Shown in pieces: positions 1,613 to 54,596 of a stretch of 64,000 nucleotides of DNA. A program made the translations under genes and the position numbers. The stretch lies in NCBI GenBank assembly GCA_963743635.1, contig CAVUQO010000002.1, forward strand, positions 32,001 through 96,000. Direction: 5' to 3'. The notes under the pieces were generated by a model. The model had not been told where the DNA came from, did no database searches, and was given only the letters and a program-made list of their open reading frames with translations. The DNA comes from Candidatus Babeliales bacterium. Lineage in GTDB: Bacteria > Babelota > Babeliae > Babelales > Vermiphilaceae. Position 1 is the stretch's first letter; every line of letters begins with the position of its first letter.

Positions 1613-1639
1613 TCAGAAGATTATTTTCTATAATGTGTG

Positions 1640-3673: not shown

Positions 3674-3757
3674 ATTGTTTGTATTCAAAATAAAACTCGC
3701 GGCATTATTGAGCGAGTCTCTGTTTTTCCTCCTATTTTATTCAAGGGAATATAATCC

Positions 3758-12261: not shown

Positions 12262-12610
12262 TTCATTTTTCAATCCTCGTAAGTTGAGAGCTTTCGTCGC
12301 AGCCGATAAAAATGAATGGCTGCGCCGCTTCTGATCAGAAAAACTTTAATAGTAAAAAAGACAGATCGGTGCCTGTTCTTCGTAGAACGAAGAGCCTAGT
12401 AGAACCACCTCTTCCAAAGAATTTACATGAATAAAATACCTGCAGTAGGCGCGCAAGCCTGATGTAGCTGGAAGCGTAGACAGGTAAATAAACCTTCTCT
12501 GGATCCAGCTTTTATCTGTTTGTTACGCGATTTGTCCTATTTCCTTAAAGTTCATTTTCTAGTATTATTGATACATGCATGGTTGTAAGACAAATGAATA
12601 AGGTATATCG

Positions 12611-27075: not shown

Positions 27076-27114
27076 CTGTAGTAATGAGTGATTAATCATA
27101 AAAAGGAGACGGAT

Positions 27115-28068
27115 ATGTATCCAGCTACTCAGGGACGATGGCTAAGCATAATGAGCATAGCATGCATATTGTTATGCAGCATGAATGGAGCGCAGGCAGC
27201 AAAAAACAGAGCGGCAAAGCGCAACCCCGCACAGCGCAGCGCAGCGGTTCTCGCCATGCAGCGTGCGAGAAAGAATGCCGAGAACGGGAAAGAAAGCGCT
27301 CAAAGTAATAGCAGCCCAAAACGATGTGCAGAAGTGCCAGCTACGATAGTCATTTCTATACCAAAAAGTGGCACAACGCTCATGAGAAAGCTTTTGACCG
27401 ATCTGACCGATAAACAGTGTTTAAGCAGATCAGAGTGTCCCGAATTATATTTGGTGACGCCAAGAGATTTTGAACGAGTTATAAAGCTGCCGGCTGAAAA
27501 ATTTTGGTCAGTTCATCTTTTTTATAATGCCAATTATGCCAAACGATTAAAAGAAGATAAATGCGCTTGCCTCTTTATTTACAGAGATCCGCGTGATCAG
27601 CTTGTTTCATTCATGTATTACATGCTCAAACACAATAAATCATGGCCTGGTGTTAATGGGCATTCGCACGCGGAGATTATTAACGATTTGATCGATACCT
27701 GCGCATTCCAGCGCAATAGTCCGCCGGTAAAGAGTATATTGCAGCTGTATGAATCGTATCTACCATGGCTCAATGAGGAGCATGTGCTCGCGATTCGCTT
27801 TGAAGATATCGTGGGCGAAAAAGGAGGCGGATCCGATGAGACTCAGCTTGCTACGATACGCGCTATAGCGCATCACATGCAGCTGGCGCTTTCAGATGAG
27901 GAGATTGAAGAGATAGCGCGCAATCTCTTTGGCGGCACCGAGACCTTTAGAAAAGGCCAAATCGGCTCTTGGAAAGATCACTTCACGCCACAGCAAAAAG
28001 AACGATTCAAGCAAGTCGCCGGCCAATTGCTGATCGACTTGGGCTATGAAAGCGATTTTAATTGGTGA
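27115..28068 (+). CDS. PAPS-dependent sulfotransferase with signal peptide
   Basis: PKSGTT (5'-PSB), YRDPRD..VS (3'-PB), FRKGQIGSWK. Confidence 0.88.
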   Translation: MYPATQGRWLSIMSIACILLCSMNGAQAAKNRAAKRNPAQRSAAVLAMQRARKNAENGKESAQSNSSPKRCAEVPATIVISIPKSGTTLMRKLLTDLTDKQCLSRSECPELYLVTPRDFERVIKLPAEKFWSVHLFYNANYAKRLKEDKCACLFIYRDPRDQLVSFMYYMLKHNKSWPGVNGHSHAEIINDLIDTCAFQRNSPPVKSILQLYESYLPWLNEEHVLAIRFEDIVGEKGGGSDETQLATIRAIAHHMQLALSDEEIEEIARNLFGGTETFRKGQIGSWKDHFTPQQKERFKQVAGQLLIDLGYESDFNW

Positions 28069-28090
28069 CTCTATGAGGCGATATGAGGGC

Positions 28091-28894
28091 TCAGTCTTTC
28101 CGTGGATAGAATATGTTTAATAGTTGAGTCTGAATATAAATATCATCGCTGAGGCGGAGATTACAAGGATTTTTTATTCTAAAATGAAAGGCATTTAGGT
28201 TCTTTTTTTGCCTATGCCATTCTTGTAAGTTTAGAAAATTAATTCTTGTGTGAAGACTTAAAGGTATTCCTTGCTGTTTTAGAAATTCTCCTATGGCTAC
28301 ATCATCAGGAGTGGTGTTATTGATAAAATGATCTTTATGCTGCACTAAGAGCTCTGCTATATCAGGGGAAATGAGAAAGCCGCAACCAGACCCAATAAAA
28401 CAATTGGGTCCAATGTCTGATCCACAATAAAAATTTTTCTTAGGACATGTTTTTAAAAAATTTAAGAGCCTTGGAAACACATAAAATGAAGATAGGTTAG
28501 TTCTTAATATATAATCAAATTCCTGCTGTATTCGTGGTAAAAAGGCCTCTAGCGATAAAATCGTTTTATTTAATATGCCGGGGGCAAGGCTTTCGGGAGT
28601 CCGTGACCATATTATATCGCCATTAATTTCACAGAGAGATGATAAATCCGGGTCCCCCTTAATAAAATAGGCTTCAATGTGTTCAGGATCATTATGCATA
28701 TAAGAGCGCCATATTTTCTGTAGTTCTGAATAAACTGGCAGATCTTCTGAAGCGATGATAAGCACGAGAACTTTTGGTCTATCTTTTTTAATCTGTTCTA
28801 TGTCTGTTCGAGTATGATGAAGGGGCCTTGCGTTAAGATAGAACGTAGCGTTGAGCATTAACAGTATATTCATGATCAAAATAGTAGTTTTCAT
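28091..28894 (-). CDS. GT31/galactosyltransferase-like glycosyltransferase with signal peptide
   Basis: LNKTI, DYILRTNLSSF, SGCGFLIS, DDVAIG. Confidence 0.6.
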   Translation of the reverse strand: MKTTILIMNILLMLNATFYLNARPLHHTRTDIEQIKKDRPKVLVLIIASEDLPVYSELQKIWRSYMHNDPEHIEAYFIKGDPDLSSLCEINGDIIWSRTPESLAPGILNKTILSLEAFLPRIQQEFDYILRTNLSSFYVFPRLLNFLKTCPKKNFYCGSDIGPNCFIGSGCGFLISPDIAELLVQHKDHFINNTTPDDVAIGEFLKQQGIPLSLHTRINFLNLQEWHRQKKNLNAFHFRIKNPCNLRLSDDIYIQTQLLNIFYPRKD

Positions 28895-29132
28895 TACATC
28901 CCCTTTTTTTAGTATAGGATTGTTTTAACGGATAGGCTCTACAATGAAAGCTCATGAGTCGAAGAAACTCTTGGACATTGTAATCATAAAAATAACCTAC
29001 GGTCAATCGCGTGTTTGGTACTAATTTTGCATATATCGCTTTTATGCCTTTCAAATATTTGATCTTTATATAGGATTTCTAAAAATAGCAGAACACATTA
29101 AAAAAGGGATGGTAGCAATGAAAGATAGGTAT

Positions 29133-30251
29133 ATGAAAACCTTATTTAAGGGATTAATATTTTTTACTTTGTGCCTTCAGTATTTTGATGCGGTGAGTGT
29201 CGCGCAACAAGATAGGTTAAAAGAAAAAACAGTATTGCTGACGGGAGCTGCCGGTTTTATCGGTAGTAACTTTTTGAAATATATGTTTGATAAATATCCA
29301 TCATATCAATTCTTGGTCTTGGATTCTCTTACGTATGCGGGAAATTTAGATAATATTCCTGATTATATCCATGCATCTTCTCGTTTTAAATTTTTCTATG
29401 GATCGGTGACTAACACGCGCTTAGTAGATTTTTTGATGAAACAATCCCATTTAGTAGTCCATTTTGCCGCAGAATCACACGTTGCACGCAGTATCTATGA
29501 TTCTGCGGTTTTTTTTGAAACGGACGTAATAGGCACACGAGTATTAATGGATTCTTTGGTCATACATAAAAATGTGGAACGGTTTATTCATATTTCTACC
29601 TCCGAAGTATGTGGAACGGCAGAAATGGTGCCCATGGATGAAGAGCATCCTATCAAGCCTCGCTCTCCCTATGCTGCGGCAAAGGCCGGCGCTGATAGAT
29701 TAGTATATGCCTATCAATGTACCTATGATATTCCTACTATCATTATCCGACCATTCAATAACTATGGTCCGCGCCAACATTTAGAAAAATTAATTCCTCG
29801 GTTTATTACGAGCGCTTTAAAGCAAGAGTCTTTAACTATTCATGGAAACGGTTTACAAACAAGGGACTGGCTGCATGTAGATGATACCTGCCGTGCTTTG
29901 GATATGGTTTTGCATCACAAACATTTTGAGAATATAAAAAATCAAGTTATCAATATCGGGAGCGGCAAGGAAACCTCAGTTCTAGAGATTGCTCAGCAAG
30001 TACGTGATATTTTTGAACTACCTGATACTGCATTGGAATTTGTTGCTGATAGACCAGGGCAAGTTGCATGTCATATTGCATCGATAACAAAGGCAAAAAT
30101 ATTGTTGGGTTGGGAACCAACTATTTCACTTAAAGAAGGATTACTATCAGTTGCAGATTGGTATAGTATTCATAAAAAATGGTGGAAAAAAAGAGAATTT
30201 ATGCAATATGTTCCCATTGTGTTATCAGATCAAACGGTGGCCTTGCAATAA
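29133..30251 (+). CDS. NAD-dependent nucleotide-sugar dehydratase (RmlB/RfbB-like) with signal-like extension
   Basis: TGAAGFIG, LTYAGN, HFAAESHV, YAAAK, NNYGP, RDWLHVDD; STSEV instead of STDEV. Confidence 0.88.
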   Translation: MKTLFKGLIFFTLCLQYFDAVSVAQQDRLKEKTVLLTGAAGFIGSNFLKYMFDKYPSYQFLVLDSLTYAGNLDNIPDYIHASSRFKFFYGSVTNTRLVDFLMKQSHLVVHFAAESHVARSIYDSAVFFETDVIGTRVLMDSLVIHKNVERFIHISTSEVCGTAEMVPMDEEHPIKPRSPYAAAKAGADRLVYAYQCTYDIPTIIIRPFNNYGPRQHLEKLIPRFITSALKQESLTIHGNGLQTRDWLHVDDTCRALDMVLHHKHFENIKNQVINIGSGKETSVLEIAQQVRDIFELPDTALEFVADRPGQVACHIASITKAKILLGWEPTISLKEGLLSVADWYSIHKKWWKKREFMQYVPIVLSDQTVALQ

Positions 30252-30341
30252 ATTTAGCCCTTGTGGATACAATACATTCAACAATTGGGTATGAGGATAG
30301 ATATCATCATTTGAGATGTAAATGTTCAGGATTTTTTATTA

Positions 30342-31172
30342 TTACCACTCAAAGTCTTTTTCATATCCAAGATCTATGAGGAGTTGCCCTGCATGTTCCT
30401 TAAAGAGTGCTATTTGAGCTGGGGTAAAATACTGTTTCCATGATCCAATTTGGCCTTTGTTGAATGAATAGCTTTTGCCGAAAATACTGCTTCCATAAGC
30501 TATCGCTTCTTCATTATTGATTGATTGGCCTATATGCTTGGCAATTGCAGTTATGGTGCGTAGCTGAGCATCGAGATTTCCGCCACCTTTTGGCCCAATC
30601 AAATCTTCAAAGTGAATAGATAAGACATTAGGAAGCTTTTGCCATGGTAAATAGGCATCGAATACTTTTTTAATACCAAGCGTGCTGATGTGATGGGATG
30701 TTACATGCATACTTTCTCCGCCTTCTATCAAGCGAGTTATGGTCTCTTCCAGTGAAAGTGTTTGAGCGCCGGGCCAGAATTTCTTATCTTTATCTCGTAT
30801 GTACAGTGCGAACGAGACAACCACGTCTCTTGGGTCACGATAAATAAAAATGATGCGATATTTAGGATCTGCTAAGACCAGAGCATATTCTTCAACGTAG
30901 GGAGAATGAGTTGCCCAAAAACTTTTATCTGATAAAGAGCTAAACCTTTTAAAATCGTTAGGAGTTAGATTGATGACATCCTGTTCTCCTGCTTTGGTTT
31001 TGGCAGCTGCATCAGACCCTATAAATGAGAGACCTTTTTTAGTCATTGTTTTTAGAAGTGTGATACCTAAGAATGTTCCTGCTTTCATCATCGATATTTG
31101 CACAACGAGACAAGAGGTATATGGTGCTGATAAAGCAATGATTAATGCAGTGATGAGATATGTTTTTTTCAT
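30342..31172 (-). CDS. PAPS-dependent sulfotransferase, paralog of 27115..28068
   Basis: MKAGT, YRDPRDVVVS, FEDLIG.KGGG, FNKGQIGSWK, LLIDLGYE. Confidence 0.85.
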   Translation of the reverse strand: MKKTYLITALIIALSAPYTSCLVVQISMMKAGTFLGITLLKTMTKKGLSFIGSDAAAKTKAGEQDVINLTPNDFKRFSSLSDKSFWATHSPYVEEYALVLADPKYRIIFIYRDPRDVVVSFALYIRDKDKKFWPGAQTLSLEETITRLIEGGESMHVTSHHISTLGIKKVFDAYLPWQKLPNVLSIHFEDLIGPKGGGNLDAQLRTITAIAKHIGQSINNEEAIAYGSSIFGKSYSFNKGQIGSWKQYFTPAQIALFKEHAGQLLIDLGYEKDFEW

Positions 31173-31368
31173 GCCGTTTTTCCTCCTTTTTGATTTTTTG
31201 GTTCTTTTATCTGAAGCAGTATATTTTTTTTTTATATTAATTGAAGAAGCAATTAATTTAAAAGGGTTAATATCTTGGTGACTAAAACTATAGTTTTTTT
31301 TTACTTTATGGTAGGTATATCAGGGTAGGAATGAGGAAAAAGGTAGCCATATAAAAAGGGTTTCGGTA

Positions 31369-32175
31369 ATGAAAAAGTGTCGATTTTTGGAGAAATATGT
31401 ATGGCTTGTTGTTATCGCCATAGCATTCGCAGGTACGCTTTATTCGCAACCTATAGAAAAAAAGAAATATAGCGTTTCCATCATCACCTCTCTTTATAAA
31501 GGCGATAAATTTATCGGTGGATTCATGAAGGATATCGTTCAGCAAACTATTTTTGATCAATGCGAGTTGATTTTAATTAATGCCAATTCTCCCGGCAATG
31601 AAGAGCAAGTAATACTGCCATATCTAACTAAATATCCGAACATTAAGTATATAAAATTATCCTCTGATCCCGGTTTGTATGCCGTATGGAATATGGCTAT
31701 CAAGATGGCGAAAGCGCCATTTATTACGAATGCAAACGTGGATGATAGGCTTGCCTTTGATTGTCATGAGGTCCATAAAAAAGCATTAGAAGCGAATCCG
31801 CATATTGATCTTGTGTATTCCGATATGTATGTAACGCACGTTCCCAACGAAACTTTTTTGACTACGACTTCAAAAAGGGTGTATGGATTACCTCAGTTTT
31901 CTAAAAAAAATATGCGCATGTGTATTATGGGAAATCATCCAATGTGGCGCAAATCAATACATCAAAAATATGGTTATTTTGATGAAACATATAAATCTTC
32001 CGGTGACTATGAAATGTGGTTGAGAGCTATGCAAGGAGGGTCGCAATTCAGGAGAATTGATGGTATATATGGTTTGTATTATTCCAATCCAGAAGGGCTT
32101 TCAACGCGGCCAGGAAGTATTGGGCGCAAAGAACGTACGAGAATAGTGGCGAAATATCAAAGTCTGTTTAAATGA
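31369..32175 (+). CDS. GT2 glycosyltransferase with N-terminal signal/anchor
   Basis: VSIITSLY, GLYAVWN, NANVDD, GDYEMWLR. Confidence 0.85.
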   Translation: MKKCRFLEKYVWLVVIAIAFAGTLYSQPIEKKKYSVSIITSLYKGDKFIGGFMKDIVQQTIFDQCELILINANSPGNEEQVILPYLTKYPNIKYIKLSSDPGLYAVWNMAIKMAKAPFITNANVDDRLAFDCHEVHKKALEANPHIDLVYSDMYVTHVPNETFLTTTSKRVYGLPQFSKKNMRMCIMGNHPMWRKSIHQKYGYFDETYKSSGDYEMWLRAMQGGSQFRRIDGIYGLYYSNPEGLSTRPGSIGRKERTRIVAKYQSLFK

Positions 32176-32206
32176 GTGGACTTAAAAAATTAATTTAGGA
32201 ATTGCG

Positions 32207-33121
32207 ATGAAAAAAACATTATTTATTTTAAAGATAGCAACATTTATCTCTCTTTTTTCTGCCCCACAAACCTTAGCTCTTCAAGACCATTATTATTGTA
32301 CGGGTGTAGATGAAAACTATTTTCCCCGTGTTGTAAACCTCATTGGCAGCATACATGCAATTGATTTTGACAATTTAGTTGAAATCGCAGTATTTGATTT
32401 GGGTATGAATAAAAATCAAGTCAAGCAGCTTAACAGGATTCAAAAAGTTAAAGTTTACGAAGTCGATATGGTACATCCAGATCTTTTGAAGCCCTTTCTA
32501 ACGAATAAAAGTGGACGAAAAGTAAGGGGATGGTTTGCGTGGAAATCTGTAATTATTAAACAGGCATTAGATATGTTTCCTTATATAGTCTATACGGATG
32601 CGGGCACCACAATTCTAGGGCCGACTGACGACTTGTTTAAACATATTCAACAAAATGGCTATTTCCTTATCGATATCGGGCACAATATAGAAGAAAGAAT
32701 TACAAGGCCAGTGATTGAGCAGGTGGTTTCTAGATTGTCTCCTGAAGATCAAAAAATGATTATGGATAAAAACACTATGGAAATAGATGCTGGCTTTCAA
32801 GGGCTTTCTCGCGCAATGTACCAAGATTACGTGTTGCCTATGTATAATTTAGCGTCCCATTTAGATCTTTTTGCAGATGATGGCTCTGCTCGTTTAGGAT
32901 ATGGCACTGGTCGACACGATCAAATCTTATTTAGTATTTTTGCCAATGTACTCAAACTAAAGTTTGAGACTCAAGGTTGGATGAATTTGTCCATAGATGG
33001 GAAAAGTGTTCCAATGCATTTTCATTGGGATTCTAAGGAAATCAATGAAAAGACAACTATATATAGATCGCGCCACAAGATAAAACCTGCGCGTTTTGAA
33101 AAATGCATTCGGTATAGATAG
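32207..33121 (+). CDS. DUF1647-like putative glycosyltransferase with signal peptide
   Basis: VFDLG, FAWK, YTDAG, RHDQ. Confidence 0.6.
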   Translation: MKKTLFILKIATFISLFSAPQTLALQDHYYCTGVDENYFPRVVNLIGSIHAIDFDNLVEIAVFDLGMNKNQVKQLNRIQKVKVYEVDMVHPDLLKPFLTNKSGRKVRGWFAWKSVIIKQALDMFPYIVYTDAGTTILGPTDDLFKHIQQNGYFLIDIGHNIEERITRPVIEQVVSRLSPEDQKMIMDKNTMEIDAGFQGLSRAMYQDYVLPMYNLASHLDLFADDGSARLGYGTGRHDQILFSIFANVLKLKFETQGWMNLSIDGKSVPMHFHWDSKEINEKTTIYRSRHKIKPARFEKCIRYR

Positions 33122-33324
33122 AAACTATTAAAAGAATTGATTTTTGAGCTCATTTTTTGATTAATCAATCCTAGTGAACTTTTCTATTTACGGAAGTGGG
33201 GCTCTTATTAATCATAATGTGTCTATTAATAAAAATTATTGATATTTCAAATTGATCTAATTTAACATCTCAGAATGATGGGCCAGTGGGGAAGGGTCCT
33301 TTAACTTAATTAGAAGGAGGGGTT

Positions 33325-34651
33325 ATGAAAAGAACCTTATTTTTATTGCTGTGTGCAATATCATTACCTATTAATGCGCTTAGGCTTAGTAGAGTTATTT
33401 TAGCTACGGATGCTAATTCAGATTATATAGAATTCTGGCCGATTGTTGCGAAAGCATGGAAAGAGATAGTCGGCGTTAAACCCACTTTGGCGCTTATAGC
33501 GCATAAAGATGTCTATATAGATGAATCTACTTGGCGACGTCATTCGTTTTGAGCCAATAGAAGGGATTCCTACTTCCTTGCAAGCGCAAGTAATAAGATT
33601 GTTATTGCCTGCGTATTTTGAAAATGATGTGTGTATCTTATCAGATATTGATATGATTCCGTTAAGTAAAAGCTATTTTGTTGATTCTATTGCTAGCGCT
33701 CCAGAGGATTCATTTGTTATTTATAGGGATGCTGCATACGGAAAGAATGATTACAGATATCCTATGTGTTATATGGCAGGAAAAGGAAAAACCTACAAAG
33801 AAATATTTAAAATAGATAACGTGAGTGACATTCCAAATATTATTGTAAATTGGCATGCATTAAATCTTGGTTGGGATACGGATGAGCGGCTGTTGTATAC
33901 TTATTTAAAAGATTGGGAGTCTGATAAAAACAAGTGCATTTGTTTGGGGCATGGCGTTTCAAAAAGAATTGATAGAAGTTCTTGGAAGCATGATGCGAAG
34001 CTTCTCGTAAGTGGACATTATATAGATGCGCATTGTCCAAGGCCTTATAGTAAGTATAAAACAGATATAGAGGATATTGTAACAAAATTAAAAGCTGCAA
34101 TTACTGTGAAAAAGCTTACATCTAGATCGGAGCTCGGTGTTGGTAGTCATATGGCATCGCTTGTTACAATGGTAATGAATACCGATGGTCCTGTATTAGA
34201 AATGGGATCTGGTGATTTTAGTACGCCTCTTTTGCATGCAGTATGTTCAAGAAGTAAGAGATTTTTACTTACCACAGATACAGATAAAAAGTGGCTTAAT
34301 TATTTTATTGATTTAGAAACAGAGTGGCATGCATTTCAGTATATTCCTGTTTATGAAGATGATTGGTCAAGAAATCCTAAGCCACAACAATGGGATCAAG
34401 TTGGAACGGATAGACATTGGTCTGTTGTTTTTGTTGATCATAGGCCGGGGGAAAGAAGGGTCGTAGATATCAAGCGCCTTCGAAATAATACGGATATTTT
34501 TGTAGTTCATGATACTGAAGAACGCTCATATGGTTATGCGCCAGTGTTAAATACCTTTAAGTATATATATGTGGATACTCGTTACAGCACGCAAACCACT
34601 GTGGTGAGTGATACGATAGATATTAGGCAATTTTTTGAACCAGCACATTAA
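33325..34651 (+). CDS. Two-domain protein (DxD-containing domain plus methyltransferase-like domain); one-base frameshift near 33528
   Basis: Signal peptide in the 75-aa ORF continues into the 376-aa ORF; SDIDM; VLEMGSG. Confidence 0.65.
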
Positions 34652-34669
34652 GGGATTTTCAAATCGGGA

Positions 34670-35620
34670 TCAGTGAATTTCTGATCCCCAGGTAATGTCC
34701 CAAATATCGAGCTCTTCAAAAAATGTGATTCCATATTGATCAAACCAGGAAAGGACTTGGTGTTCTCTCCATAGTTCAGGTGCCTGATATATAGTTGGAT
34801 CAAAAAAGGTGTAGTTAGCAAACCATTGGTGTGGCGATTGTAGCGTTCTGATGGTTTGCTCTTTTTTGCTTTCTCCATATATAATATTGATTTCTCTGAT
34901 TGATTTTGATGGGTTACGAATATGCTCAAGACAGCGGTACCATGCTTGCTTTATGAGTAAGTTTCTCCAATTCACGAACTGAAAATGTATGATTCCGTGG
35001 GTATAGTCGTTATCATAATTTTTTAACTTAGTTATTTTGCCTGATAAATTATTAGGTATTCGTGACGTATGTATAAAATCCGATGTATAGGAACACCGTT
35101 GGTCGTCGCAGAAAATAAAGCCAGTGTAATTCCACGTAAAAGGTGACTTGTCTACGCGAAATCTATCCACACTTCGCCATAATTGAATCCATAAAAGATT
35201 TAATTTATCGCCAGGGTTAAGCGAAAGAATTATATTGCGTAGAAAATTATCATCGAGACTATTGGAGGTGATCATTTCATCTACATCAAGCACTATAAAG
35301 TGCGTTCCGCCTATTGCGCGTCCTTCATTAAGTAGTCTATTTCGGTCGCCAGGCTCATCTCTATACCATGTTTCCTTTGTTATGATTTTTTCAATTTTAC
35401 ATTCTGCAGCAATTGATTTAACAATTTCTACGCTATTGTCTTCTGAGGCATCATCGAGATAGACGATGGCATCTACAAAAAGGGAAAGAGCCTTGAGATG
35501 CTGGACAAGAAAGTTGGATTCATTTCTTCCAGGAACAAGTCCAACTATTTTTGCACCATAGGAATGGTTTGCAATAGATAGCATAGACAACAAAGTCATA
35601 AATAATCGTATTTTTTTCAT
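34670..35620 (-). CDS. GT2-like glycosyltransferase with signal peptide
   Basis: RNE, LDDASEDNS, VLDVDE. Confidence 0.78.
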   Translation of the reverse strand: MKKIRLFMTLLSMLSIANHSYGAKIVGLVPGRNESNFLVQHLKALSLFVDAIVYLDDASEDNSVEIVKSIAAECKIEKIITKETWYRDEPGDRNRLLNEGRAIGGTHFIVLDVDEMITSNSLDDNFLRNIILSLNPGDKLNLLWIQLWRSVDRFRVDKSPFTWNYTGFIFCDDQRCSYTSDFIHTSRIPNNLSGKITKLKNYDNDYTHGIIHFQFVNWRNLLIKQAWYRCLEHIRNPSKSIREINIIYGESKKEQTIRTLQSPHQWFANYTFFDPTIYQAPELWREHQVLSWFDQYGITFFEELDIWDITWGSEIH

Positions 35621-35814
35621 TCTTGTTGCTCACTATAAAAAAACATTTCATATCACCTATAGCATAAGGGATATTTTTTTATCTATAGATTTCATATGAA
35701 TATAGTTCATATCGTGTCGTTATTTGGTAATGAAAAAAATATATCCTCAGATACCAGGATTTATAGCCACGCGTTTTCCTGGGCACAATTATTGTATAAA
35801 ACGCGACGGTTCAT

Positions 35815-37104
35815 TTATAGGATTTTCCGTCCTACAAAAAGGTAGAAATAATAAGGCTCATCAATGGTTTCTTCTGTATGTAGTAATTTTGATTTTGCTA
35901 TTTGCATCGCCCAATCGGTATCTTCGCTGAAATTTTTCTCAGGAAAGGTAAATTGCGCGGCTATAGCTCTTCTGATGGGATTTAAGTGGTTTGGTGGCCT
36001 GAAATATACATTATTTTCTTCAAAATACTTTGTATACTGGATGGAATGAATGAAAGATTTAGGTTTAGTTCCATCGAATGTGATAATGCCATTCAGGTTC
36101 ACACAGTCAGGATTGTTAACGAGTCTCGTAGCAATTAATTCTATATATTTATCATGAATATCGTCATCGTCATCAATAAAACTTACATATTTGCCCTTGC
36201 TCTGTTCAAGAAGCACATTGCGTTTATGGCCAACAGTATGCTCGCCTCGCTTGTCTTTAAAATAAAGGATTTCAACATAATCTTGCAAGTCTAAATCACA
36301 TATTTGCATGGCAAGTTTTTCATATAATCTAGTAAAGCTCTGTTCTCTTTCATCCATAGTGCAGATCAATATACTCCATAGTTTTGGAGTTGCACGCTCT
36401 ATTTCTGCTTCTGATAAATCAAAAAAGTTTGCCCGGCGCTGCGTAAAAACATTCTTATCTTCATTTGAGGCTTCTTGTATGGGGTGATTATGCTTCATGA
36501 GTTGTTGATCTACCATTTTTTCTTTTTTAAGTATTCTCGAAACGCTCGTTAGTTCATGCTGGCATATCATAGTTTTATATGCTGGATGATATACGTAATT
36601 GAAACGTCTATAATATTTTCCGCCGATGGCGGGAATAGTGTTGTATAGTCTCTCAATAGTGCCATCATTAATATTCAGGACTCCATCAAAATTGGGGAAT
36701 GCTTCTCTCATATTGTTGAAAATAATAGCATCAAAGTTTTTAACCGCTGGTACCATTTCATCAGATGCAATAAGGAGAAGGTCAAATTCAAAATTATTAA
36801 TATTTCTATTACATGCTTCTACTGTTGATTTATTGCTATTAAAGCTGAATGCCAAGTTGGGATATTTTTTGAGTTTTTTCATGACACTTCTACTATGCAT
36901 AGGTTTATTATTTTCATCACAGGTGATTAAAAATGCAAAAGCAATGGTGTGGGATAGATTTTTGTAATAAGTATCGAGTATTTTGAAAAATTCGTTTGGC
37001 TGCGAGTTGGTATGCATTTTAATTAAAAGATTTGTTTTTATAGCACTGAGATTGAATGCGTTCAAGAGGCCTAGATATAAGAAGATTTTTTTTATATGGT
37101 ACAT
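35815..37104 (-). CDS. Two-domain GT2-like glycosyltransferase, paralog of 42908..44251
   Basis: WSILICT, GHKRN, FIDDDD, NHLNPI, EDTDW. Confidence 0.82.
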   Translation of the reverse strand: MYHIKKIFLYLGLLNAFNLSAIKTNLLIKMHTNSQPNEFFKILDTYYKNLSHTIAFAFLITCDENNKPMHSRSVMKKLKKYPNLAFSFNSNKSTVEACNRNINNFEFDLLLIASDEMVPAVKNFDAIIFNNMREAFPNFDGVLNINDGTIERLYNTIPAIGGKYYRRFNYVYHPAYKTMICQHELTSVSRILKKEKMVDQQLMKHNHPIQEASNEDKNVFTQRRANFFDLSEAEIERATPKLWSILICTMDEREQSFTRLYEKLAMQICDLDLQDYVEILYFKDKRGEHTVGHKRNVLLEQSKGKYVSFIDDDDDIHDKYIELIATRLVNNPDCVNLNGIITFDGTKPKSFIHSIQYTKYFEENNVYFRPPNHLNPIRRAIAAQFTFPEKNFSEDTDWAMQIAKSKLLHTEETIDEPYYFYLFVGRKIL

Positions 37105-37307
37105 GTGAAGGCCTCGCTTTTGATTGAACCTAATTTTTTCAATGAAACTATAATGTAATGACAATATTGTCTAGTAAAGAACTGAATCGGATATGACTTA
37201 ATGCGCTATGTTCTTTCGAAAGGTTTGGGTATTGCAAGGGTGGTCTATATATATTATCTTGTGAAGCAAGTAGTAGATTAATGACTATATTTTATTAAGG
37301 ATTGTGT

Positions 37308-38237
37308 ATGAAAAAAGGATTAATTTTTAGAATTGCAGTTTGGGTATGCCTTTCTATAGGCGCAAAAGCATTTGCTCAACAAGATGGTTACCAGGGTAAT
37401 TATTATTGCACATGCGCAGATGAACGATTTTTCTCACGCCTTGTTAATTTAATTGGTAGTATACATGCGGTTGATTTTGATGATTTAGTTGAAATTGCAG
37501 TGTTTGATCTTGGATTGACTCAAGATCAAGTAAAGCGATTGAAAAGTATGCAAAAAGTTAATGTATATGAGATTGAGAAAGTGCATCCGGATATTTTAAA
37601 GCACTTTAAGACCAGTAATCAAGGAAGGAAGGTTCGAGGTTGGTTTGCGTGGAAGCCGGTTGCCATGAAGCAAGCATTGGATATGTTTCCTTACATATTA
37701 TATCTTGATGCGGGGTTAACAGTGCTAAAACCAACGAGGAACTTGTTTAAACATATTCAGCAAAATGGATATTTTCTTGTAAACAATACGTGCAATATAG
37801 AAGAAAGAATTACACAGCCAGTTATGAAAGCTATTATTTCTTCTTTGCCCATTGAACAGCAAGAAATGATATTAGATAAAAACACTCTAGAATTCGATGC
37901 GGGATTCCAGGGACTTTCTAGAGCAATGTATCAAAATTATATACTGCCTATGTATCGTTTAGCCTCTCGGTTGGAGCTTTTTGCAGACGATGGCTCTGCA
38001 AAATTGGGTTTTGGTGCTGGGCGACATGATCAAGTTTTATTTAGCATTCATGCGTATCTATTAAATCCGAAGCCTAAATTTAACTCGTATGGATGGTCCA
38101 ATCTCAACATAGATGGTCAGTCTCACCCGATTAATGTTCAGTGGGAAGTAAGTAAGGTTACTGATGACACAGTTGTGCTTGTGTCTTGCGATCAGAAAAA
38201 AATGAGTTATTTCGAGCAACGTGTTCGGTATCGATAG
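37308..38237 (+). CDS. DUF1647-like putative glycosyltransferase, paralog of 32207..33121
   Basis: NLIGSIHA, VFDLG, FAWKP, YLDAG, RHDQ. Confidence 0.6.
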   Translation: MKKGLIFRIAVWVCLSIGAKAFAQQDGYQGNYYCTCADERFFSRLVNLIGSIHAVDFDDLVEIAVFDLGLTQDQVKRLKSMQKVNVYEIEKVHPDILKHFKTSNQGRKVRGWFAWKPVAMKQALDMFPYILYLDAGLTVLKPTRNLFKHIQQNGYFLVNNTCNIEERITQPVMKAIISSLPIEQQEMILDKNTLEFDAGFQGLSRAMYQNYILPMYRLASRLELFADDGSAKLGFGAGRHDQVLFSIHAYLLNPKPKFNSYGWSNLNIDGQSHPINVQWEVSKVTDDTVVLVSCDQKKMSYFEQRVRYR

Positions 38238-38258
38238 CAAATTTCTCCACAGTTGTGG

Positions 38259-39224
38259 TTATTTTTTTCTTATCTTGTTTTGTACTGCTCTTATCTGATT
38301 AATCCAGTAATCGGCATGCAATTTATTTAAATTATAAGTCTTCTTTTGCAATTTTCGATACTTCTTTTCAAGAAATTCTTGGGTTACTTGATCCCAATTA
38401 TTAATTAGAAGCACTGGTAATCCCTCAAAAAGAGGATCGAGTGCAGAATGTTTTACAATCGGAATGCAACCAAGAAGCATAGCTTCCCAGGTGCGATAAC
38501 AATCAAGGCCATTACCTTCTGGACTTACAACGTACATAAAGCGCGTCAGATCTTGAATGTAGCTTGCATAGGGTAACCGTGGCGCGTACGTACAAAATGG
38601 TGCATTAATGAACGCCTCATATGCCTTTTTGCGCTCGAGGACATTCGTGTTAATCGTGAAATTCATGTAAAGCAGGTGTTCGCATGAACGCGCTTTTGAA
38701 CGCGGACTCTCGTTGATGGCAGCTTCAAGAATAGCAGTATCACCATATTCAAAGCTTTTATTGGCTATGCCAATTGGAATGGGTATGAATTTCGGGTGAT
38801 TGGTGATGCTCGGATTTTGACCGAACCAGGCAATAATACGCGTATCATCGAGATGTTTAAGATATGGGCCTGGCGCTGGATCATCACTATTATGGGTGAT
38901 TAAAATGTAGGGCGTTGTGATGGTAGGATGTATGTCAGTAAAAAAATGTTTGAGGTAATCCGTTTGTACAAAAATAATATCGCCGAGTTGTAAGGCGGTT
39001 GTATCAAAAGAATCATCATCATCTTCAATAATAAACGTGGCGTATGAGCGAAATGTATCGCCTGAAATATAGGGATAGCTGGAGATATGGGGTTTATCTT
39101 TGGGTGCATTGCAGAAGCGATAGTGAGAATCTGAGCTCTGTGCAGCAGCGCGGGTGGATACCGCATCGCTGATGATCACTATGGTAATGCATATGAGGAT
39201 GTATGTATAATATCCGCATTCCAT
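38259..39224 (-). CDS. Exostosin/GT47-like glycosyltransferase
   Basis: THNSD, PIPIG, SPEGNGLDCYRTWEAMLLGCIPIV. Confidence 0.7.
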   Translation of the reverse strand: MECGYYTYILICITIVIISDAVSTRAAAQSSDSHYRFCNAPKDKPHISSYPYISGDTFRSYATFIIEDDDDSFDTTALQLGDIIFVQTDYLKHFFTDIHPTITTPYILITHNSDDPAPGPYLKHLDDTRIIAWFGQNPSITNHPKFIPIPIGIANKSFEYGDTAILEAAINESPRSKARSCEHLLYMNFTINTNVLERKKAYEAFINAPFCTYAPRLPYASYIQDLTRFMYVVSPEGNGLDCYRTWEAMLLGCIPIVKHSALDPLFEGLPVLLINNWDQVTQEFLEKKYRKLQKKTYNLNKLHADYWINQIRAVQNKIRKK

Positions 39225-39246
39225 CTAGTCTCCTCATCTATTATGT

Positions 39247-39906
39247 TTATTTTTTTACAAACAACACATTACCATAAATCCAGGACGTAGTATCAAGAAA
39301 GTCTTGCGCAATGGCTTTAAAGCCTTGCATTTCGAGCCAACTACGAATCTCTTCGTATTGCGCTTGGCCTTCATAGGCTTCAATAAATTCAACTTCTACA
39401 AATAATGCGCGAACTGTTTTAAGGATGTTTATGCCACCTTTTAATACCGGTAGTGCGAGGCCTTGCAGATCAAGCCACATGAAATCGATATGATCGATGT
39501 TCTGTTGCGTGGCCCAACTATCAAGCGTGATGGTTGGCACCGTGATGGTGCGAGGATAGGTGATAGGGGAATGTTTGAGCCGTTCTTTTGGCTTTAGCAG
39601 TGTGCCCGCTTGAAATGGTTCGCCAGGTCTGCTGGGCTTTTCTGAAATGTAGAGTATTGCCGATCCATTTTGATCGCTGAGCGCGATCTGATGACGCATG
39701 ATGTTCGAGCAGTGCTTGGTTTTTGCTTCGAGGATCGCGAAAATGTCCGCCACTGGCTCAAATGCGTGAATGGTGCCTTGTGGCCACTGAGCGCTCATTT
39801 TCTGCGTGTCAGTACCATCGAAAGCACCGGCTTCCACGATAATTGGATTATCGGGAAGATAGTTGGCAACGTACGAAAGAATCTGATTTTTTTTAATGAT
39901 ATCCAT
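39247..39906 (-). CDS. FkbM-family methyltransferase
   Basis: VEAGAFDG, HAFEP, TLDSW, IDFMWLDLQG, YEGQ. Confidence 0.9.
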   Translation of the reverse strand: MDIIKKNQILSYVANYLPDNPIIVEAGAFDGTDTQKMSAQWPQGTIHAFEPVADIFAILEAKTKHCSNIMRHQIALSDQNGSAILYISEKPSRPGEPFQAGTLLKPKERLKHSPITYPRTITVPTITLDSWATQQNIDHIDFMWLDLQGLALPVLKGGINILKTVRALFVEVEFIEAYEGQAQYEEIRSWLEMQGFKAIAQDFLDTTSWIYGNVLFVKK

Positions 39907-39953
39907 ACAACGAGTATAGCAGATTTATCAAAAGATGCAGAAATGTGTGGGTC

Positions 39954-40688
39954 TTATTTATTTCGTTCAGAGTCACCTGGTTTTGAGACGTAATAATAAA
40001 AATAATAAGGTTCATCAATCGTTTCTTCGGTGCGCAATAACCCTGATCGAGCTATTTGCATAGCCCAATCGGTATCTTCCCCGCGAAATTTTTCAGGGAA
40101 TTTAAATTGTGCGGCTATGGATTTTCTTATTGGATTTAGGTGATTGGGAGGTCTGAAATATGTATTATTTTTTTCAAAATAGCTCTTATATTCAATAGAA
40201 TGAATGAATTTTTTAGCTCTTTTGCCATTGAATGTGATGATACCAATGAGGCTTACGCAATCAGGATTGTTGACTAATTTTTTTGAGATCAGCTCTATAT
40301 AATGATCATGAATATCGTCATCATCATCGATGAAACTGATATATTTACCTTTACTTTGCTCCACAAGGACATTGCGTTTATGGCCAACAGTATGCTCTTT
40401 CCGTTTATCTTTATAATAAAGGACTTCGATATGGTCTTGAAGATTTAGATCGTGTATCTGTTTGGTGAGTTTTTCATATAATGCGTTAAAGGAAGTCTCT
40501 CTTCCTTCAATGGTGCAGATTAAGATGCTCCACAATTTTTGAGGCATCTCTTCTATTTGGGTATTATGCCGGTTGTGAGGATCTTTGGGAATGTCTTGAT
40601 TGGCGAGCATAAAAAAAGGTTGTATGCAGAAGCAATAAATGCTCAATATCAGCATTCGTTCTACATAATTATTTTTAATCATGAGCAC
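39954..40688 (-). CDS. Single-domain GT2 glycosyltransferase (C-terminal domain of the 35815/42908 type)
   Basis: WSILICT, FIDDDD, EDTDW; 3' end highly similar at DNA level to the 42908 gene. Confidence 0.82.
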   Translation of the reverse strand: MLMIKNNYVERMLILSIYCFCIQPFFMLANQDIPKDPHNRHNTQIEEMPQKLWSILICTIEGRETSFNALYEKLTKQIHDLNLQDHIEVLYYKDKRKEHTVGHKRNVLVEQSKGKYISFIDDDDDIHDHYIELISKKLVNNPDCVSLIGIITFNGKRAKKFIHSIEYKSYFEKNNTYFRPPNHLNPIRKSIAAQFKFPEKFRGEDTDWAMQIARSGLLRTEETIDEPYYFYYYVSKPGDSERNK

Positions 40689-40760
40689 TCCTTTATATTA
40701 CTCATAGATAGATATGGGTATATCTTGCCGTGAAAATTTAAATATTGCAAAGCAACTTGC

Positions 40761-41861
40761 CTATCTTAACAATGCCGGTTCTTTATAACCAATTTCTAGC
40801 AAATCTTGAAGCCATGCCCTTATTAAAGCGCTGTCTTTTTCTAAGTAAAATTTATGAGCGACCATAGCGTCTGTTAGTTCAATAACGCGATCAAAAAAGT
40901 TAGTTTGTTTGGACTTCCAATGTTTTAGTAGATTTACTAAGTTGCCCGCGTGAACATACAGATCTATTTCATCAATAAAATCATGCATCAAATTATGCTC
41001 ATTGCGTTCTTGTATAACTGCTGGAGGCATAAAGCAGAGATTGCCGCCTATATCCCATAGTAGCCGTTGCGCCCAATAGCCGCGCCAGATATCGCATACG
41101 CGAAATTTAGGTGTTACGGGAATGAGTAGTCCCCAAAATGCCTGTGAGTGAAAGATGGTAATTTGTGTATTGAAGGGACATAACGTTCCTTCAGGTAGGG
41201 AAATTGGTTGTGCGTGTTGATTGAACACAATAGATCCGATTCCTTGCGTCAAACGAAAAATAGCATCTACGTCAGGATCGAGATCGGCGAGTCCTTGCTG
41301 AATGTAGGGATGTGTTTCATGTTTTAAAATGGGTTTTCTTGATAAAACTTTGTCTAGTGGATAACCACGAGGCCATATTGATGGCTGACCAAAATGAGCA
41401 TAGGCATTCACGACAGGTTCTTTTGTTTCATAGAGTAGGGTTTCTGCCGTTGAGGGAAGATATTCTATGGTATTATGGATTAAAATATTGTCGTCATCCG
41501 TGTCATAAATAATGGTCGCGCCATTTTTTATTGCATATAAATAGCCAATATTTTTTCTGCTGTAATGATTCCAAGGCAACAATTTGGTGATATGAAAACC
41601 GAGCTGCTCTTGTTTTTCAGGGCTTAGATAGTCGCAATTTTCTAAATGCCAATCGATTGGAGTTTTTTTGTCGCCTACAACTACGACACGCCAATCTTTG
41701 AGCGCGGCCAATTTTTCAAGAGCCTTGGTTGGATGGTTGATGGTAGTAACTACAACCCAACGAGAAGCAGGTTTAATGGCATCGCACAATAAAGGTTGAT
41801 GGCAAAAACATACAAAAATGCCGCCGATGATACTTGCTACCAGGTTCAATATTCGTTTCAT
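40761..41861 (-). CDS. STELLO/DUF288-like glycosyltransferase, N-terminal-domain type
   Basis: WVVVTTIN, VVVGDKKTP.DW, RKNIGYLYAI, YDTDDDN, WPRGYPL, DPDVDAIFRL, DIWRGYWAQRLLW. Confidence 0.85.
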   Translation of the reverse strand: MKRILNLVASIIGGIFVCFCHQPLLCDAIKPASRWVVVTTINHPTKALEKLAALKDWRVVVVGDKKTPIDWHLENCDYLSPEKQEQLGFHITKLLPWNHYSRKNIGYLYAIKNGATIIYDTDDDNILIHNTIEYLPSTAETLLYETKEPVVNAYAHFGQPSIWPRGYPLDKVLSRKPILKHETHPYIQQGLADLDPDVDAIFRLTQGIGSIVFNQHAQPISLPEGTLCPFNTQITIFHSQAFWGLLIPVTPKFRVCDIWRGYWAQRLLWDIGGNLCFMPPAVIQERNEHNLMHDFIDEIDLYVHAGNLVNLLKHWKSKQTNFFDRVIELTDAMVAHKFYLEKDSALIRAWLQDLLEIGYKEPALLR

Positions 41862-41872
41862 ATATTTCCTTT

Positions 41873-42742
41873 TTAAGATAATATTTGATTAAAAATTTGA
41901 GTTATCATATCTCTATTTTCTTTTTTGGAAAATTTTATAGGGTGGACCCAGCTGGCATGCCTAGGATAATTTTTTATTGTAAAGTTATGACCCCAACGCC
42001 AATCCATGCGCAATTGCTCCCAATTTTCTATAAGATCTAAAGAACAAAGCATAGTAGGAATGGCGATTTCACAAAAAACTTTTTTTAATAGTTCGCTTAA
42101 TCTTAAGGTAGCATCTCTGAACCTGCCAGGAATATAAAAGAGATCGCACCATATGCCGGGAATATTATCTTCACCAACATTTTTTTGTAAAAAATAGAGC
42201 TCTTGGGTATTAAATTTGGCATGTGCATTCCAGACAGCTTCAAAATAAATTGGCCACCATATCCAAGTTTGATCGCCCGTGCATGTGCCATTTGCATTTC
42301 GGATAGAAAAAAATAGGTTGCGTTGGTTATTGGCTCTGACTGCAAGCCAAATCTTATCAAGGTCATAAGAGAGATAATTCCAAAAATTTAAGATGCAATC
42401 ATCTTGTAAAATGAGATAACCATCATAATTAGGGAACTCAGTGAGAGCGTGTTCTAGCACTTCATGCAGGAAGTATCCAAGGCCAGTATTAACTTTATGT
42501 ACTTGAGGATGCGCCCTTTCTCCATAAAAAACGATATTTTTAAAAATAGGGGAATATAGATTCTTTATGAATTCTATATTGTCATAATATGGATGATTGA
42601 AATTGATTACTAATAAGACATTACGGAATTTTTCTTGATAAATTCTTAGAGGTTCATTGTGAGCAGTAAGATTGCGTGATGATGTAAATAAGCAGAATAT
42701 ACTTAATAAGGCTATGAAATTAACATAGTTTGTTTTGATCAT
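41873..42742 (-). CDS. Protein resembling the C-terminal half of STELLO/DUF288 proteins
   Basis: VLLVINFNHP, GYLILQDDCILNFWN, DLFYIP, EIAIPT, HPIKFS. Confidence 0.6.
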   Translation of the reverse strand: MIKTNYVNFIALLSIFCLFTSSRNLTAHNEPLRIYQEKFRNVLLVINFNHPYYDNIEFIKNLYSPIFKNIVFYGERAHPQVHKVNTGLGYFLHEVLEHALTEFPNYDGYLILQDDCILNFWNYLSYDLDKIWLAVRANNQRNLFFSIRNANGTCTGDQTWIWWPIYFEAVWNAHAKFNTQELYFLQKNVGEDNIPGIWCDLFYIPGRFRDATLRLSELLKKVFCEIAIPTMLCSLDLIENWEQLRMDWRWGHNFTIKNYPRHASWVHPIKFSKKENRDMITQIFNQILS

Positions 42743-42907
42743 TCTTGCTCCTTGTTACTCATTTTTTCATATTTACCAGTTAATGAACTGGTGCCGCCAA
42801 AAAGTGTTGTTATAGCCTCTTTAGTGTGGTCTCATCTAGGTTGACCTCCAGGTGCAATGATTCAGTTGAGCGATGCAACATAAGAATCTGATAGGAATGT
42901 ATGGCCC

Positions 42908-44251
42908 TTATTGGTTCCGTTTAGAATCACCAGGCTTTGAGACGTAGTAATAGAAATAATAAGGTTCATCAATCGTTTCTTCGGTGCGCAATAACCCTGA
43001 TCGGACTATTTGCATGGCCCAGTCAGTATCTTCGCCACGATTTTTTTCAGGAAAAGTAAATTGTACCGCTATGGATCTTCTTATTGGATTTAGGTGATTA
43101 GGGGGTCTGAAATATGTATTATTTTTTTCAAAATAGCTTTTATATTCAATAGAGTGAATAAATTTTTTGGGTCTTTGGTCATTAGACCTGATGATGCCAT
43201 TGAGATTTACGCAGTCAGGATGGTCACCCAATTTTGTAGCTATAAGCTCTATGTATTTATCATGAATATCATCGTCATCATCAATGAAGCTAACATATTT
43301 ACCTTTGCTTTGTTCGAGAAGGACATTGCGTTTGTGGCCTACAGTGTGTTCTCCTCGTTTGTCTTTAAAGTAAAGGACCTCAATATGATCTTGAAGATCT
43401 AGATCTTGTATTTGTTTAGTGAGTTTTTCATATAAAGCAGTAAAGGATGCTTTTCTTTCTTCGATGGTGCAAATTAGTATACTCCATAATTTCGGAGTTG
43501 CCCGCTCTATCTCTTTCTGGGGCAGATCAAAAAAGTTTACGCCTCGCTGTGCAAAGATTATTTTATCTTGGTTATGATACGTTTCATTTTTTTTATACAG
43601 ATTATCTTTGGGTGCAAGATGCCATGTGTGGTGATTATGCTTCATAAGAACTTGATCAACAACCTTTTCCTTTTTGAGTATTTTGGAAACATTAGTGAGT
43701 TCAACATCACATACGAGTGCTTTGTATGCAGGATGATATATGTAGCCAAAACGTTTATAATATTTGCCTCCCAGGATGGGGATGGTATTACATTGTCTGC
43801 CAACTTTGCCATCATTAATATTTAATACGCCATCAAAATCGGGAAATGCTTCTTTCATATTCTGAAACAGGATGGCATCAAAATTTTTCACTACCGGTAC
43901 TATGTCATCCGATGCGACGATGAGCATATCAAAATCAAAATTATTAACATCTTTATTATATGCCTCTACTTTTGAAGTGCAGTTGCCAAAGCTAAAGACT
44001 AAATTGGGATATCTTTTCAACTTTTTGATGACATCCTTATTATTCATACTGGTGTCATCTCGGTCGCACGTGATTAAAAAGGTGAAGGAAAGTGTATGAG
44101 AAAGATTTTCATAATAAGTATCAAGATTTTTAAAAAACTGATCAGGTCTTGAGCGCGTAGGTATTTTGATCAATAATGTGGAGTAGTTAGCAGATATTTC
44201 GAATGAGCTTAACAGTAACATATATAATAAAAATTTTTTGATAAGGTACAT
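42908..44251 (-). CDS. Two-domain GT2-like glycosyltransferase with signal peptide
   Basis: PTRSRP, ASDD, FPDFDG; WSILICT, FIDDDD. Confidence 0.82.
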   Translation of the reverse strand: MYLIKKFLLYMLLLSSFEISANYSTLLIKIPTRSRPDQFFKNLDTYYENLSHTLSFTFLITCDRDDTSMNNKDVIKKLKRYPNLVFSFGNCTSKVEAYNKDVNNFDFDMLIVASDDIVPVVKNFDAILFQNMKEAFPDFDGVLNINDGKVGRQCNTIPILGGKYYKRFGYIYHPAYKALVCDVELTNVSKILKKEKVVDQVLMKHNHHTWHLAPKDNLYKKNETYHNQDKIIFAQRGVNFFDLPQKEIERATPKLWSILICTIEERKASFTALYEKLTKQIQDLDLQDHIEVLYFKDKRGEHTVGHKRNVLLEQSKGKYVSFIDDDDDIHDKYIELIATKLGDHPDCVNLNGIIRSNDQRPKKFIHSIEYKSYFEKNNTYFRPPNHLNPIRRSIAVQFTFPEKNRGEDTDWAMQIVRSGLLRTEETIDEPYYFYYYVSKPGDSKRNQ

Positions 44252-52770: not shown

Positions 52771-52773
52771 ATT

Positions 52774-53310: not shown

Positions 53311-53313
53311 ATT

Positions 53314-54006: not shown

Positions 54007-54031
54007 AACGTTTCCCTATTGAGCTATATAG

Positions 54032-54550: not shown

Positions 54551-54596
54551 GATAATCCTTGAGTGTTAAGTATTGTTTTGATCGTTATGCAATTGA

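Follow-up and report, generated by a model that had tools for sequence, protein, structure and literature searches.

How does a bacterium build glycans with enzymes that almost all begin with what looks like an export leader? The question is raised by a block of 16 consecutive genes (p01 to p16, with p07 broken by a frameshift) in the genome of a Candidatus Babeliales bacterium (assembly GCA_963743635.1, referred to as G000). The stretch analysed, hereafter the window, comprises 64,000 nucleotides of contig CAVUQO010000002.1 (G000:C2:32001-96000), and belongs to a three-contig genome of 1.45 Mb that is 85% complete and whose relatives have genome sizes of 0.8-1.9 Mb. In textbook bacterial glycan synthesis, the chemistry of nucleotide sugars and of 3′-phosphoadenosine 5′-phosphosulfate (PAPS) is carried out in the cytoplasm, and lipid-linked products are then moved outward.

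The block is best explained as a variable glycan-building island of a Babeliales (Dependentiae) parasite, with about ten glycosyltransferase (GT) domains (GT2, GT8-like, STELLO-like and possibly GT31-like), two PAPS-type sulfotransferases, an RmlB-like nucleoside diphosphate (NDP)-sugar enzyme and methyltransferases. The reading put forward here, with about even confidence, is that the enzymes leave the cytoplasm through Sec and, once outside, make a sulfated or methylated glycan from nucleotide sugars and PAPS of host origin. Nearly every polypeptide would have its own N-terminal Sec-type leader, so that the catalytic domains would each be carried across the inner membrane. The enzymes would then work in the periplasm or on the cell surface, or once a type II secretion system or vesicles have released them. 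The nucleotide sugars and PAPS would come from the host cytoplasm, and the product would most likely sit on the parasite envelope or on its secreted proteins.

Gene content of the island

The block (27088-44251) consists of 16 consecutive, glycan-related open reading frames (ORFs) in mixed orientation. Its GC content is 0.372, compared with 0.422 for the remaining window and 0.420 for the whole genome, so that an earlier reading of the sequence without database searches (the sequence-only reading) was right to describe alternating gene orientation and a more AT-rich composition. The features are as follows, where "the rule" is the leader definition given in the next section.

27115-28068, + strand: p01, PAPS-type sulfotransferase; leader, basic stem of about 55 residues, catalytic domain (Sulfotransfer_1, 5.5e-21)
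28091-28894, - strand: p02, possible GT31/Fringe-like transferase; leader called by the rule
29118-30251, + strand: p03, RmlB-like NDP-sugar 4,6-dehydratase-type short-chain dehydrogenase/reductase; N-terminal leader of about 35 residues; Pfam matches
30342-31172, - strand: p04, sulfotransferase paralogous to p01, with the PSB strand immediately after its leader (Sulfotransfer_1, 3.5e-13)
31369-32175, + strand: p05, GT2 enzyme with leader (Glycos_transf_2, 3.2e-13, domain from residue 37)
32207-33121, + strand: p06, GT8-like GT-A glycosyltransferase with leader; paralog of p10
33325-33552, + strand: p07 N-terminal fragment, leader MKRTLFLLLCAISLPINA and start of the domain, with a stop after the frameshift; AGGAGG upstream
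33521-34651, + strand: p07 body, candidate glycosyltransferase-plus-methyltransferase fusion in a frame different from that of the leader
34670-35620, - strand: p08, GT2-like enzyme with leader (Glyco_tranf_2_4, below cut-off); ortholog in genome G010 61% identical
35815-37104, - strand: p09, two domains (unnamed N-domain and GT2 C-domain) behind one leader; start at the ATG of codon 20
37308-38237, + strand: p10, GT8-like, 60% identical to p06; leader called by the rule, ending in AFA before QQ
38259-39224, - strand: p11, weakly RXYLT1_C/GT47-like; very hydrophobic N-terminus without a basic residue, not called by the rule
39247-39906, - strand: p12, FkbM methyltransferase (Methyltransf_21, 1.1e-22), the sole island enzyme without a leader
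39954-40682, - strand: p13, stand-alone GT2 with its own leader, sharing 73-83% identity with the p09 and p16 C-domains; Pfam match
40761-41861, - strand: p14, STELLO-like glycosyltransferase with leader (STELLO, PF03385, 1.5e-19)
41873-42742, - strand: p15, second STELLO-like protein, with leader (2.7e-7; 30.2 bits, cut-off 27.8)
42908-44251, - strand: p16, two-domain paralog of p09 (68% identity) with leader; Pfam GT2 match in the C-domain
46136-46870, + strand: leaderless GT2 beside the island (Glycos_transf_2, 4.2e-20, from residue 5), with a counterpart beside the island of G010

Pfam profiles matched 12 of the 16 island proteins at E ≤ 0.01, ten of them above the curated cut-off, and bore out the sulfotransferase, RmlB-like, GT2, FkbM and STELLO families proposed from sequence alone. 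The two sulfotransferases score 75.5 bits (p01) and 50 bits (p04) against a Sulfotransfer_1 cut-off of 22, and share 41% identity. The PKSGTT and RKGxxGxWK (RKGQIGSWK) motifs of p01 align with those of cytosolic SULTs, and presumably correspond to the 5′-phosphosulfate-binding (5′-PSB) and 3′-phosphate-binding (3′-PB) loops; the PSB loop of p04 is degenerate (MMKAGT). The p03 protein aligns over residues 41-361 of its ORF with the structure 6bi4 (2.3e-74), including the catalytic Tyr-x3-Lys region (SPYAAAKAG). Its STSEV sequence replaces the STDEV of 6bi4, and the Thr-Asp-Glu triad of RmlB, to which the Asp is assumed to contribute catalytically, is therefore incomplete, so that a substrate or reaction cannot be assigned to p03 from its RmlB similarity.

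Other family assignments had to be modified. The label DUF1647 for p06 and p10 was not upheld, since neither protein has a Glyco_transf_8 or any other Pfam match (p06 at E ≤ 5; p10 at E ≤ 0.01), and a profile of the p06 family found only 6mw5, at E=0.11, among PDB entries. The best Foldseek matches of the p06 model are LgtC, XXYLT1, LARGE1 and glycogenin, with template modelling scores of 0.44-0.5. On this predicted fold, p06 and p10 may be called GT8-like GT-A enzymes rather than members of GT8. The GT31-like label of p02 is a lead from ESM-Atlas, where the nearest clusters are Fringe/Galactosyl_T proteins of Parabasalia and Nucleocytoviricota (score 0.96; the family is annotated on 23-87% of members); p02 has no Pfam match. 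Likewise, the GT47-like label of p11 is a lead from two sub-threshold matches, to RXYLT1_C (1.6e-5; 24.8 bits, cut-off 27) and to Exostosin_GT47 (E=0.097; 12.4 bits, cut-off 33.4), and membership of the latter family is not borne out. The STELLO match of p14 reaches 70.6 bits and covers only profile positions 1-113 of 387. A scan of the genome contigs with p14 found no relative. The p15 protein is represented by three homologs in G010 and a single one in G039. An AlphaFold model of the unnamed N-domain of p09 and p16, built from a three-sequence alignment, has a mean predicted local distance difference test score (pLDDT) of 50.9.

The p07 body has no Pfam match; its nearest ESM-Atlas clusters are viral GT8/GT34 and Methyltransf_24 proteins at 0.89-0.91, a weak lead on which it is probably a glycosyltransferase-methyltransferase fusion. 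Its frameshift lies near 33515-33530. Contigs of runs X2 and X3 show the identical sequence there, and the break is therefore real in the DNA and not an assembly error.

Leaders, start sites and base rate

A leader was called where a sequence of net non-negative charge is followed by at least 8 uncharged residues with a mean Kyte-Doolittle hydropathy of at least 2.0, beginning within 15 residues of the start. All leader calls reported here come from this home-made rule, applied to starts picked by Shine-Dalgarno (SD) score; an earlier version that scanned many alternative starts gave a similar genome-wide rate. Thirteen of the 16 island proteins are positive, each having a basic n-region and, within the first ~35 residues, a hydrophobic core without charges, and p11 and the upstream fragment of p07 are leader-like by eye. 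The earlier count of 15 signal-peptide-like N-termini, with FkbM as the exception, thus stands as 13 by rule and two by eye, with the qualification that the p07 leader is off-frame. Small residues at positions -3 and -1 followed by a neutral or acidic mature start are clear in p03, p06, p10 and much of the p06 family, and are violated by p01 and p02.

The leaders could in principle be gene-calling artefacts, with the true starts lying downstream of the hydrophobic runs, which is very improbable. In-frame later starts do exist in p01, p03, p13, p14 and p16, and the remaining genes have no such alternative. None of these later starts is preceded by an SD-like motif, whereas the upstream starts are: such motifs precede 12 of the 16 chosen starts, with AAGGAG before the ATG at codon 9 of p01 and AAGGAGG upstream of p04. 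The p07 leader is preceded by AGGAGG. Independent gene calls on hundreds of other contigs also retain the leaders, and the form that a leaderless start takes can be seen in the viral homologs described below.

The same rule flags 674 of the 1232 ORFs genome-wide (55%) and 27 of the 43 in the window outside the island. In a control on an annotated stretch of E. coli, 9 of 40 proteins were flagged, three of them falsely. Because the rule flags more than half of all ORFs, the enrichment of the island is only modest (p=0.026 for 13/16; p=0.0009 for 15/16). The leader count alone is thus not the finding, which lies in the kinds of enzyme that bear leaders. A high rate has also been described for C. 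destructans, where 44% of coding sequences have signal peptides according to the available text of Deeg et al.

Leader-bearing homologs and leaderless relatives

Homologs of p06 carry a leader in 105 of 120 cases, and those of the sulfotransferases in at least 102 of 120. These leaders vary in sequence, many have A-x-A at their end, and the domain's first strand follows a few residues later. Compared across homologs, they are conserved in property and not in sequence. In the p06 family (n=106), the N-terminal flank of the hydrophobic segment is more positive than the C-terminal flank in 89% of members and the reverse holds in 3%, as fits an N-in/C-out orientation. Among the 15 leaders of the island, nine have the N-in/C-out bias, four are tied and two (p01 and p02) are reversed. 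In the AlphaFold model of p06 (pLDDT 93.9), helix 2-17 is detached from a domain that begins at residue 28.

Each polypeptide has a single leader, however many domains follow it. The GT2 domain has a leader when it stands alone (p13) and none of its own when it is fused behind another domain (p09 and p16), while the N-domain of the p09/p16 type stands alone with a leader in G010. The idea that the leaders belong to the catalytic folds was examined and rejected, as both the p06 model and the viral alignments present them as separate add-ons.

Leaders are absent from the viral and free-living relatives of the island enzymes. Seven IMG/VR contigs with GC contents of 0.25-0.39 encode p06 homologs that share 38-46% identity and start at the domain. 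On two of these contigs, leaderless GT2, p08-like, p06-like and STELLO genes follow one another; leaderless viral-contig homologs are 29-31% identical for the p05-like and 24-25% identical for the p08-like proteins. In an alignment of STELLO proteins (A2), three bacterial copies have a leader of 20-33 residues, two viral-contig copies begin at the first strand, and the TDDD motif is invariant. Six of the seven contig homologs of p06 fall in one supported clade (100/95), which is compatible with transfer in either direction. Capsid profiles of nucleocytoplasmic large DNA viruses matched none of the three viral-contig fragments searched, in a search where the control matched nowhere either, and the viral nature of the contigs thus rests on their inclusion in IMG/VR. 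For p03, 124 of the best 150 relatives have a recognisable Rossmann motif, 109 of the 124 start at most 15 residues from it, and none has a signal-like leader.

From this comparison of homologs, we infer that the island enzymes are exported. The sequence-only reading had called them exported from their N-termini; conserved leaders, charge bias in the p06 family and leaderless relatives now speak for that part of it, whereas the reversed bias of p01 and p02 leaves room for anchors that face the cytoplasm.

The same site in other Babeliales genomes

G010 is from another genus of the family to which G000 belongs. Its island at the syntenic site is larger and adjoins a leaderless GT2 gene and a serine hydroxymethyltransferase (SHMT) gene. 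There, 21 of 24 ORFs are leader-bearing. The island (G010:C1:1206000-1245999) includes two GT6 genes, a DegT aminotransferase, an epimerase, LicD, FkbM and an insertion sequence-like ORF. The DegT aminotransferase of this related genome is leader-bearing, whereas the G010 ortholog of p12 (55% identity) is leaderless like p12 itself. G039 retains the STELLO pair and has a GDP-mannose 4,6-dehydratase (Gmd) with a leader. Gene content at this one conserved site differs strongly among G000, G010 and G039.

The best 30 Gmd loci in the order divide into 10 with a leader-like extension and 20 without one; two strong Gmd matches come from G039 and two from G056. Of 121 genomes in the order, 8 encode a genuine adenosine 5′-phosphosulfate (APS) kinase; none of the 8 is G000 or one of the nine further genomes sampled from its family. 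The six bifunctional ATP-sulfurylase/APS-kinase PAPS synthases inspected (in G129, G108, G119, G140, G110 and G137; 557-587 residues) all carry a leader and adjoin leader-bearing sulfotransferases. Judged by their N-termini, these synthases apparently represent an exported PAPS-making step.

Two more sulfotransferase-like genes are found in G000, at G000:C2:475631-476110 and C3:249106-249609, and their products also have hydrophobic N-termini.

Donor supply and the classical route

The proposed use of host PAPS and host nucleotide sugars has points on both sides. In line with it, the check for PAPS synthesis found no APS kinase match in G000, at the 85% completeness of that genome. On the other side stand the order genomes that do encode PAPS synthesis and one leaderless GalU-like NTP transferase in G000, whose identity is assumed from its N-terminal motif. 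Nucleotide sugars and PAPS are made in the cytosol of eukaryotes. G000 encodes signal peptidase I, two secretins and four NTT nucleotide transporters, and with the latter in place, host nucleotides of similar size may reach the periplasm. No protein of G000 reaches the Pfam cut-off of a nucleotide-sugar transporter family. Weak hits are two neighbouring proteins (302 and 335 residues; G000:C2:249279-250927), at 19.8 and 18.9 bits against a family cut-off of 27; they are probably general carriers of the drug/metabolite transporter (DMT) type.

In being a variable block of lower GC content, with GTs, NDP-sugar enzymes and modifying enzymes between conserved genes, the island resembles Wzx/Wzy loci. 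It differs in that its GTs are leader-bearing and that G000, 85% complete, has no match to Wzx (PF01943), Wzy_C (PF04932) or the priming transferase family Bac_transf. The genome has a single Glycos_transf_4 protein, which is taken to be MraY. Pfam agrees that none of the 16 island proteins is a Wzx, Wzy, Wzz or ABC exporter. The suggestion that the block is not an O-antigen locus is supported by these results, and also accords with the Babeliales being reported, in the source text available, to lack lipopolysaccharide (LPS) genes.

Several observations weigh against an exported pathway fed by the host. Leaders are near the default in G000, where 55% of ORFs are flagged, and they were called by a home-made rule with three false calls among 40 E. 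coli proteins. As the genome is incomplete, its missing genes are to be taken as not found and not as absent. The charge bias is reversed in p02 and in p01 (-4); in p01, the hydrophobic segment is directly followed by five basic residues. Applied to the sulfotransferase family, the charge test gives an ambiguous result, with 49 members for, 24 tied and 29 against. The FkbM enzyme p12 lacks a leader, and p07 is frameshifted, with its leader cut off from its body. Together with the GalU-like enzyme, the leaderless GT2 next to the island points to sugar chemistry in the cytoplasm too, and G010 has a Wzx-like gene (PF01943) between its island and the SHMT gene. Moreover, Sec moves unfolded chains, and nicotinamide adenine dinucleotide (NAD+), S-adenosylmethionine and metal ions would have to be acquired outside.

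Part of this evidence would suit leaders that are uncleaved anchors, holding the catalytic domains on the cytoplasmic face in an ordinary membrane-associated pathway that uses the cell's own donors. The reversed bias of p01 and p02, the four further ties and the ambiguous sulfotransferase test would follow readily from such anchors, as would the leaderless GalU-like, GT2 and FkbM proteins and the Wzx-like gene near the G010 island, and all these enzyme classes normally depend on cytoplasmic cofactors. This explanation is nonetheless unlikely. It is at odds with the N-in/C-out bias in 89% of the p06 family, with the many leaders that end in A-x-A, and with the sulfotransferase leader, which stops 2-10 residues short of the first PAPS-loop strand and leaves no room for an anchor and a free domain. 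PAPS synthesis was not found in G000 at its present completeness, the PAPS synthase of its relatives is leader-bearing, and some genomes of the order hold a Gmd of each form, leaderless and leader-bearing.

If export is accepted, the enzymes might instead be effectors directed at the host, glycosylating or sulfating host proteins, lipids or glycans after release into the host cytoplasm or vacuole. The evidence for export is identical under both explanations. Secretins are encoded in G000, nucleotide sugars and PAPS are at hand in the eukaryotic cytosol, and 78% of the ankyrin-repeat proteins of C. destructans have signal peptides, which the available source text reads as host-directed. Against this stands the look of a multi-step pathway, with sixteen enzymes that include donor-modifying ones and paralog pairs, rather than that of single-step effectors. 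Island content is also strongly variable among G000, G010 and G039, like that of surface-glycan loci, and homologous viral clusters are thought, in the available texts of PMC10117803, PMC8456856 and PMC9614988, to decorate the virion itself. A set of host-directed effectors is thus improbable, and a glycan built on the parasite's own surface or secreted proteins is preferred.

A broader version of the exported pathway is possible, though doubtful: in Babeliales generally, the space outside the inner membrane may work like a Golgi apparatus, with the donor-making and donor-using machinery all exported through Sec. The exported set would comprise PAPS synthase, NDP-sugar dehydratases, aminotransferases, a dozen glycosyltransferases, sulfotransferases and methyltransferases, and would run on ATP, sulfate and nucleotide sugars leaking in from the host cytoplasm. 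The kit would also be that of giant viruses sharing these hosts, from whose versions the bacterial ones would differ mainly in the added export tag.

Comparison with known systems

Eukaryotic type II enzymes of the Golgi, such as UXS1, STELLO and carbohydrate sulfotransferases, have a basic tail, a hydrophobic segment, sometimes a stem, and a lumenal domain. The island proteins have the same layout, with a stem in p01, and in the Golgi, too, the donors come from the cytosol. Unlike in the Golgi, there is no organelle, G000 has no nucleotide-sugar transporter over the cut-off, and many of the leaders look cleavable.

Chlamydia trachomatis secretes glycogen enzymes that use host UDP-glucose, as described in the available text of Gehre et al. 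2016 (PMC4829429). The likeness lies in an intracellular bacterium that exports classically cytoplasmic sugar-polymer enzymes onto a host nucleotide sugar. As far as that text goes, the chlamydial enzymes have type 3 signals, make one simple polymer and work in a vacuole fed by a host transporter, whereas the Babeliales island has Sec-type leaders and a many-enzyme kit, predicted from its genes, for heteroglycan synthesis, sulfation and methylation.

In giant viruses, clusters for the Megavirinae fibril and for the chlorovirus PBCV-1 are described as directing autonomous glycan synthesis by a protist parasite in the host cytoplasm (available texts of PMC10117803, PMC8456856 and PMC9614988), and the PBCV-1 GTs are reported in the accessible part of PMC9614988 to be without signal peptides. 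The IMG/VR contigs share the enzyme families of the island and partly its gene order. The bacterial copies differ in each having an added leader; the IMG/VR contigs are candidates for giant-virus sequence.

The outer-membrane Lst sialyltransferase of Neisseria uses host cytidine 5′-monophospho-N-acetylneuraminic acid (CMP-NANA; PMC4324315 and PMC10827150, available passages). Here a Leloir-type transferase outside the cytoplasm takes a host nucleotide sugar and decorates the bacterium's own surface, as is proposed for the island. In those passages, Lst is one enzyme adding one sugar to lipooligosaccharide (LOS), whereas the island would encode an entire pathway, in bacteria that reportedly have no LPS. 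The literature search found no published account of such a system for Dependentiae, Babeliales or TM6, nor of secreted sulfotransferases of intracellular bacteria.

If the proposal is true, it would add a second solution to the textbook route, in which RmlB-like enzymes, Gmd, DegT, PAPS synthase, Leloir GTs and SULT-like enzymes are themselves exported, and which only a parasite surrounded by host metabolites could use. It would further account for how the LPS-less Dependentiae could coat themselves, tie their glycan kit to giant viruses of the same hosts, and make export-ready soluble glycosyl- and sulfotransferases available for study.

Flanking genes and other features of the window

The island is flanked at 25323-26795 by a leader-bearing calcineurin-like metallophosphoesterase (Pfam, 2.4e-17). 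The other flank (44396-45955) encodes a 519-residue protein that resembles an M17 leucyl aminopeptidase by eye and has the leader MKKALITSLLLSLSITLIINA; this candidate would be a further classically cytoplasmic enzyme with an export tag.

A transfer-messenger RNA (tmRNA) gene is located at 11900-12264, with the tag peptide ANDTFVPAFA (Rfam, 143.6 bits; ARAGORN). At 5311-8174, SecF-like and Rho-like frames, identified by eye, are split into several short ORFs by frame changes beside an intact L27 gene (4751-5008), which may reflect degradation or a local sequence error. Runs of small leader-bearing proteins (~160-260 residues) that resemble paralog arrays of secreted proteins are found at 1124-4552 and 52150-55088.

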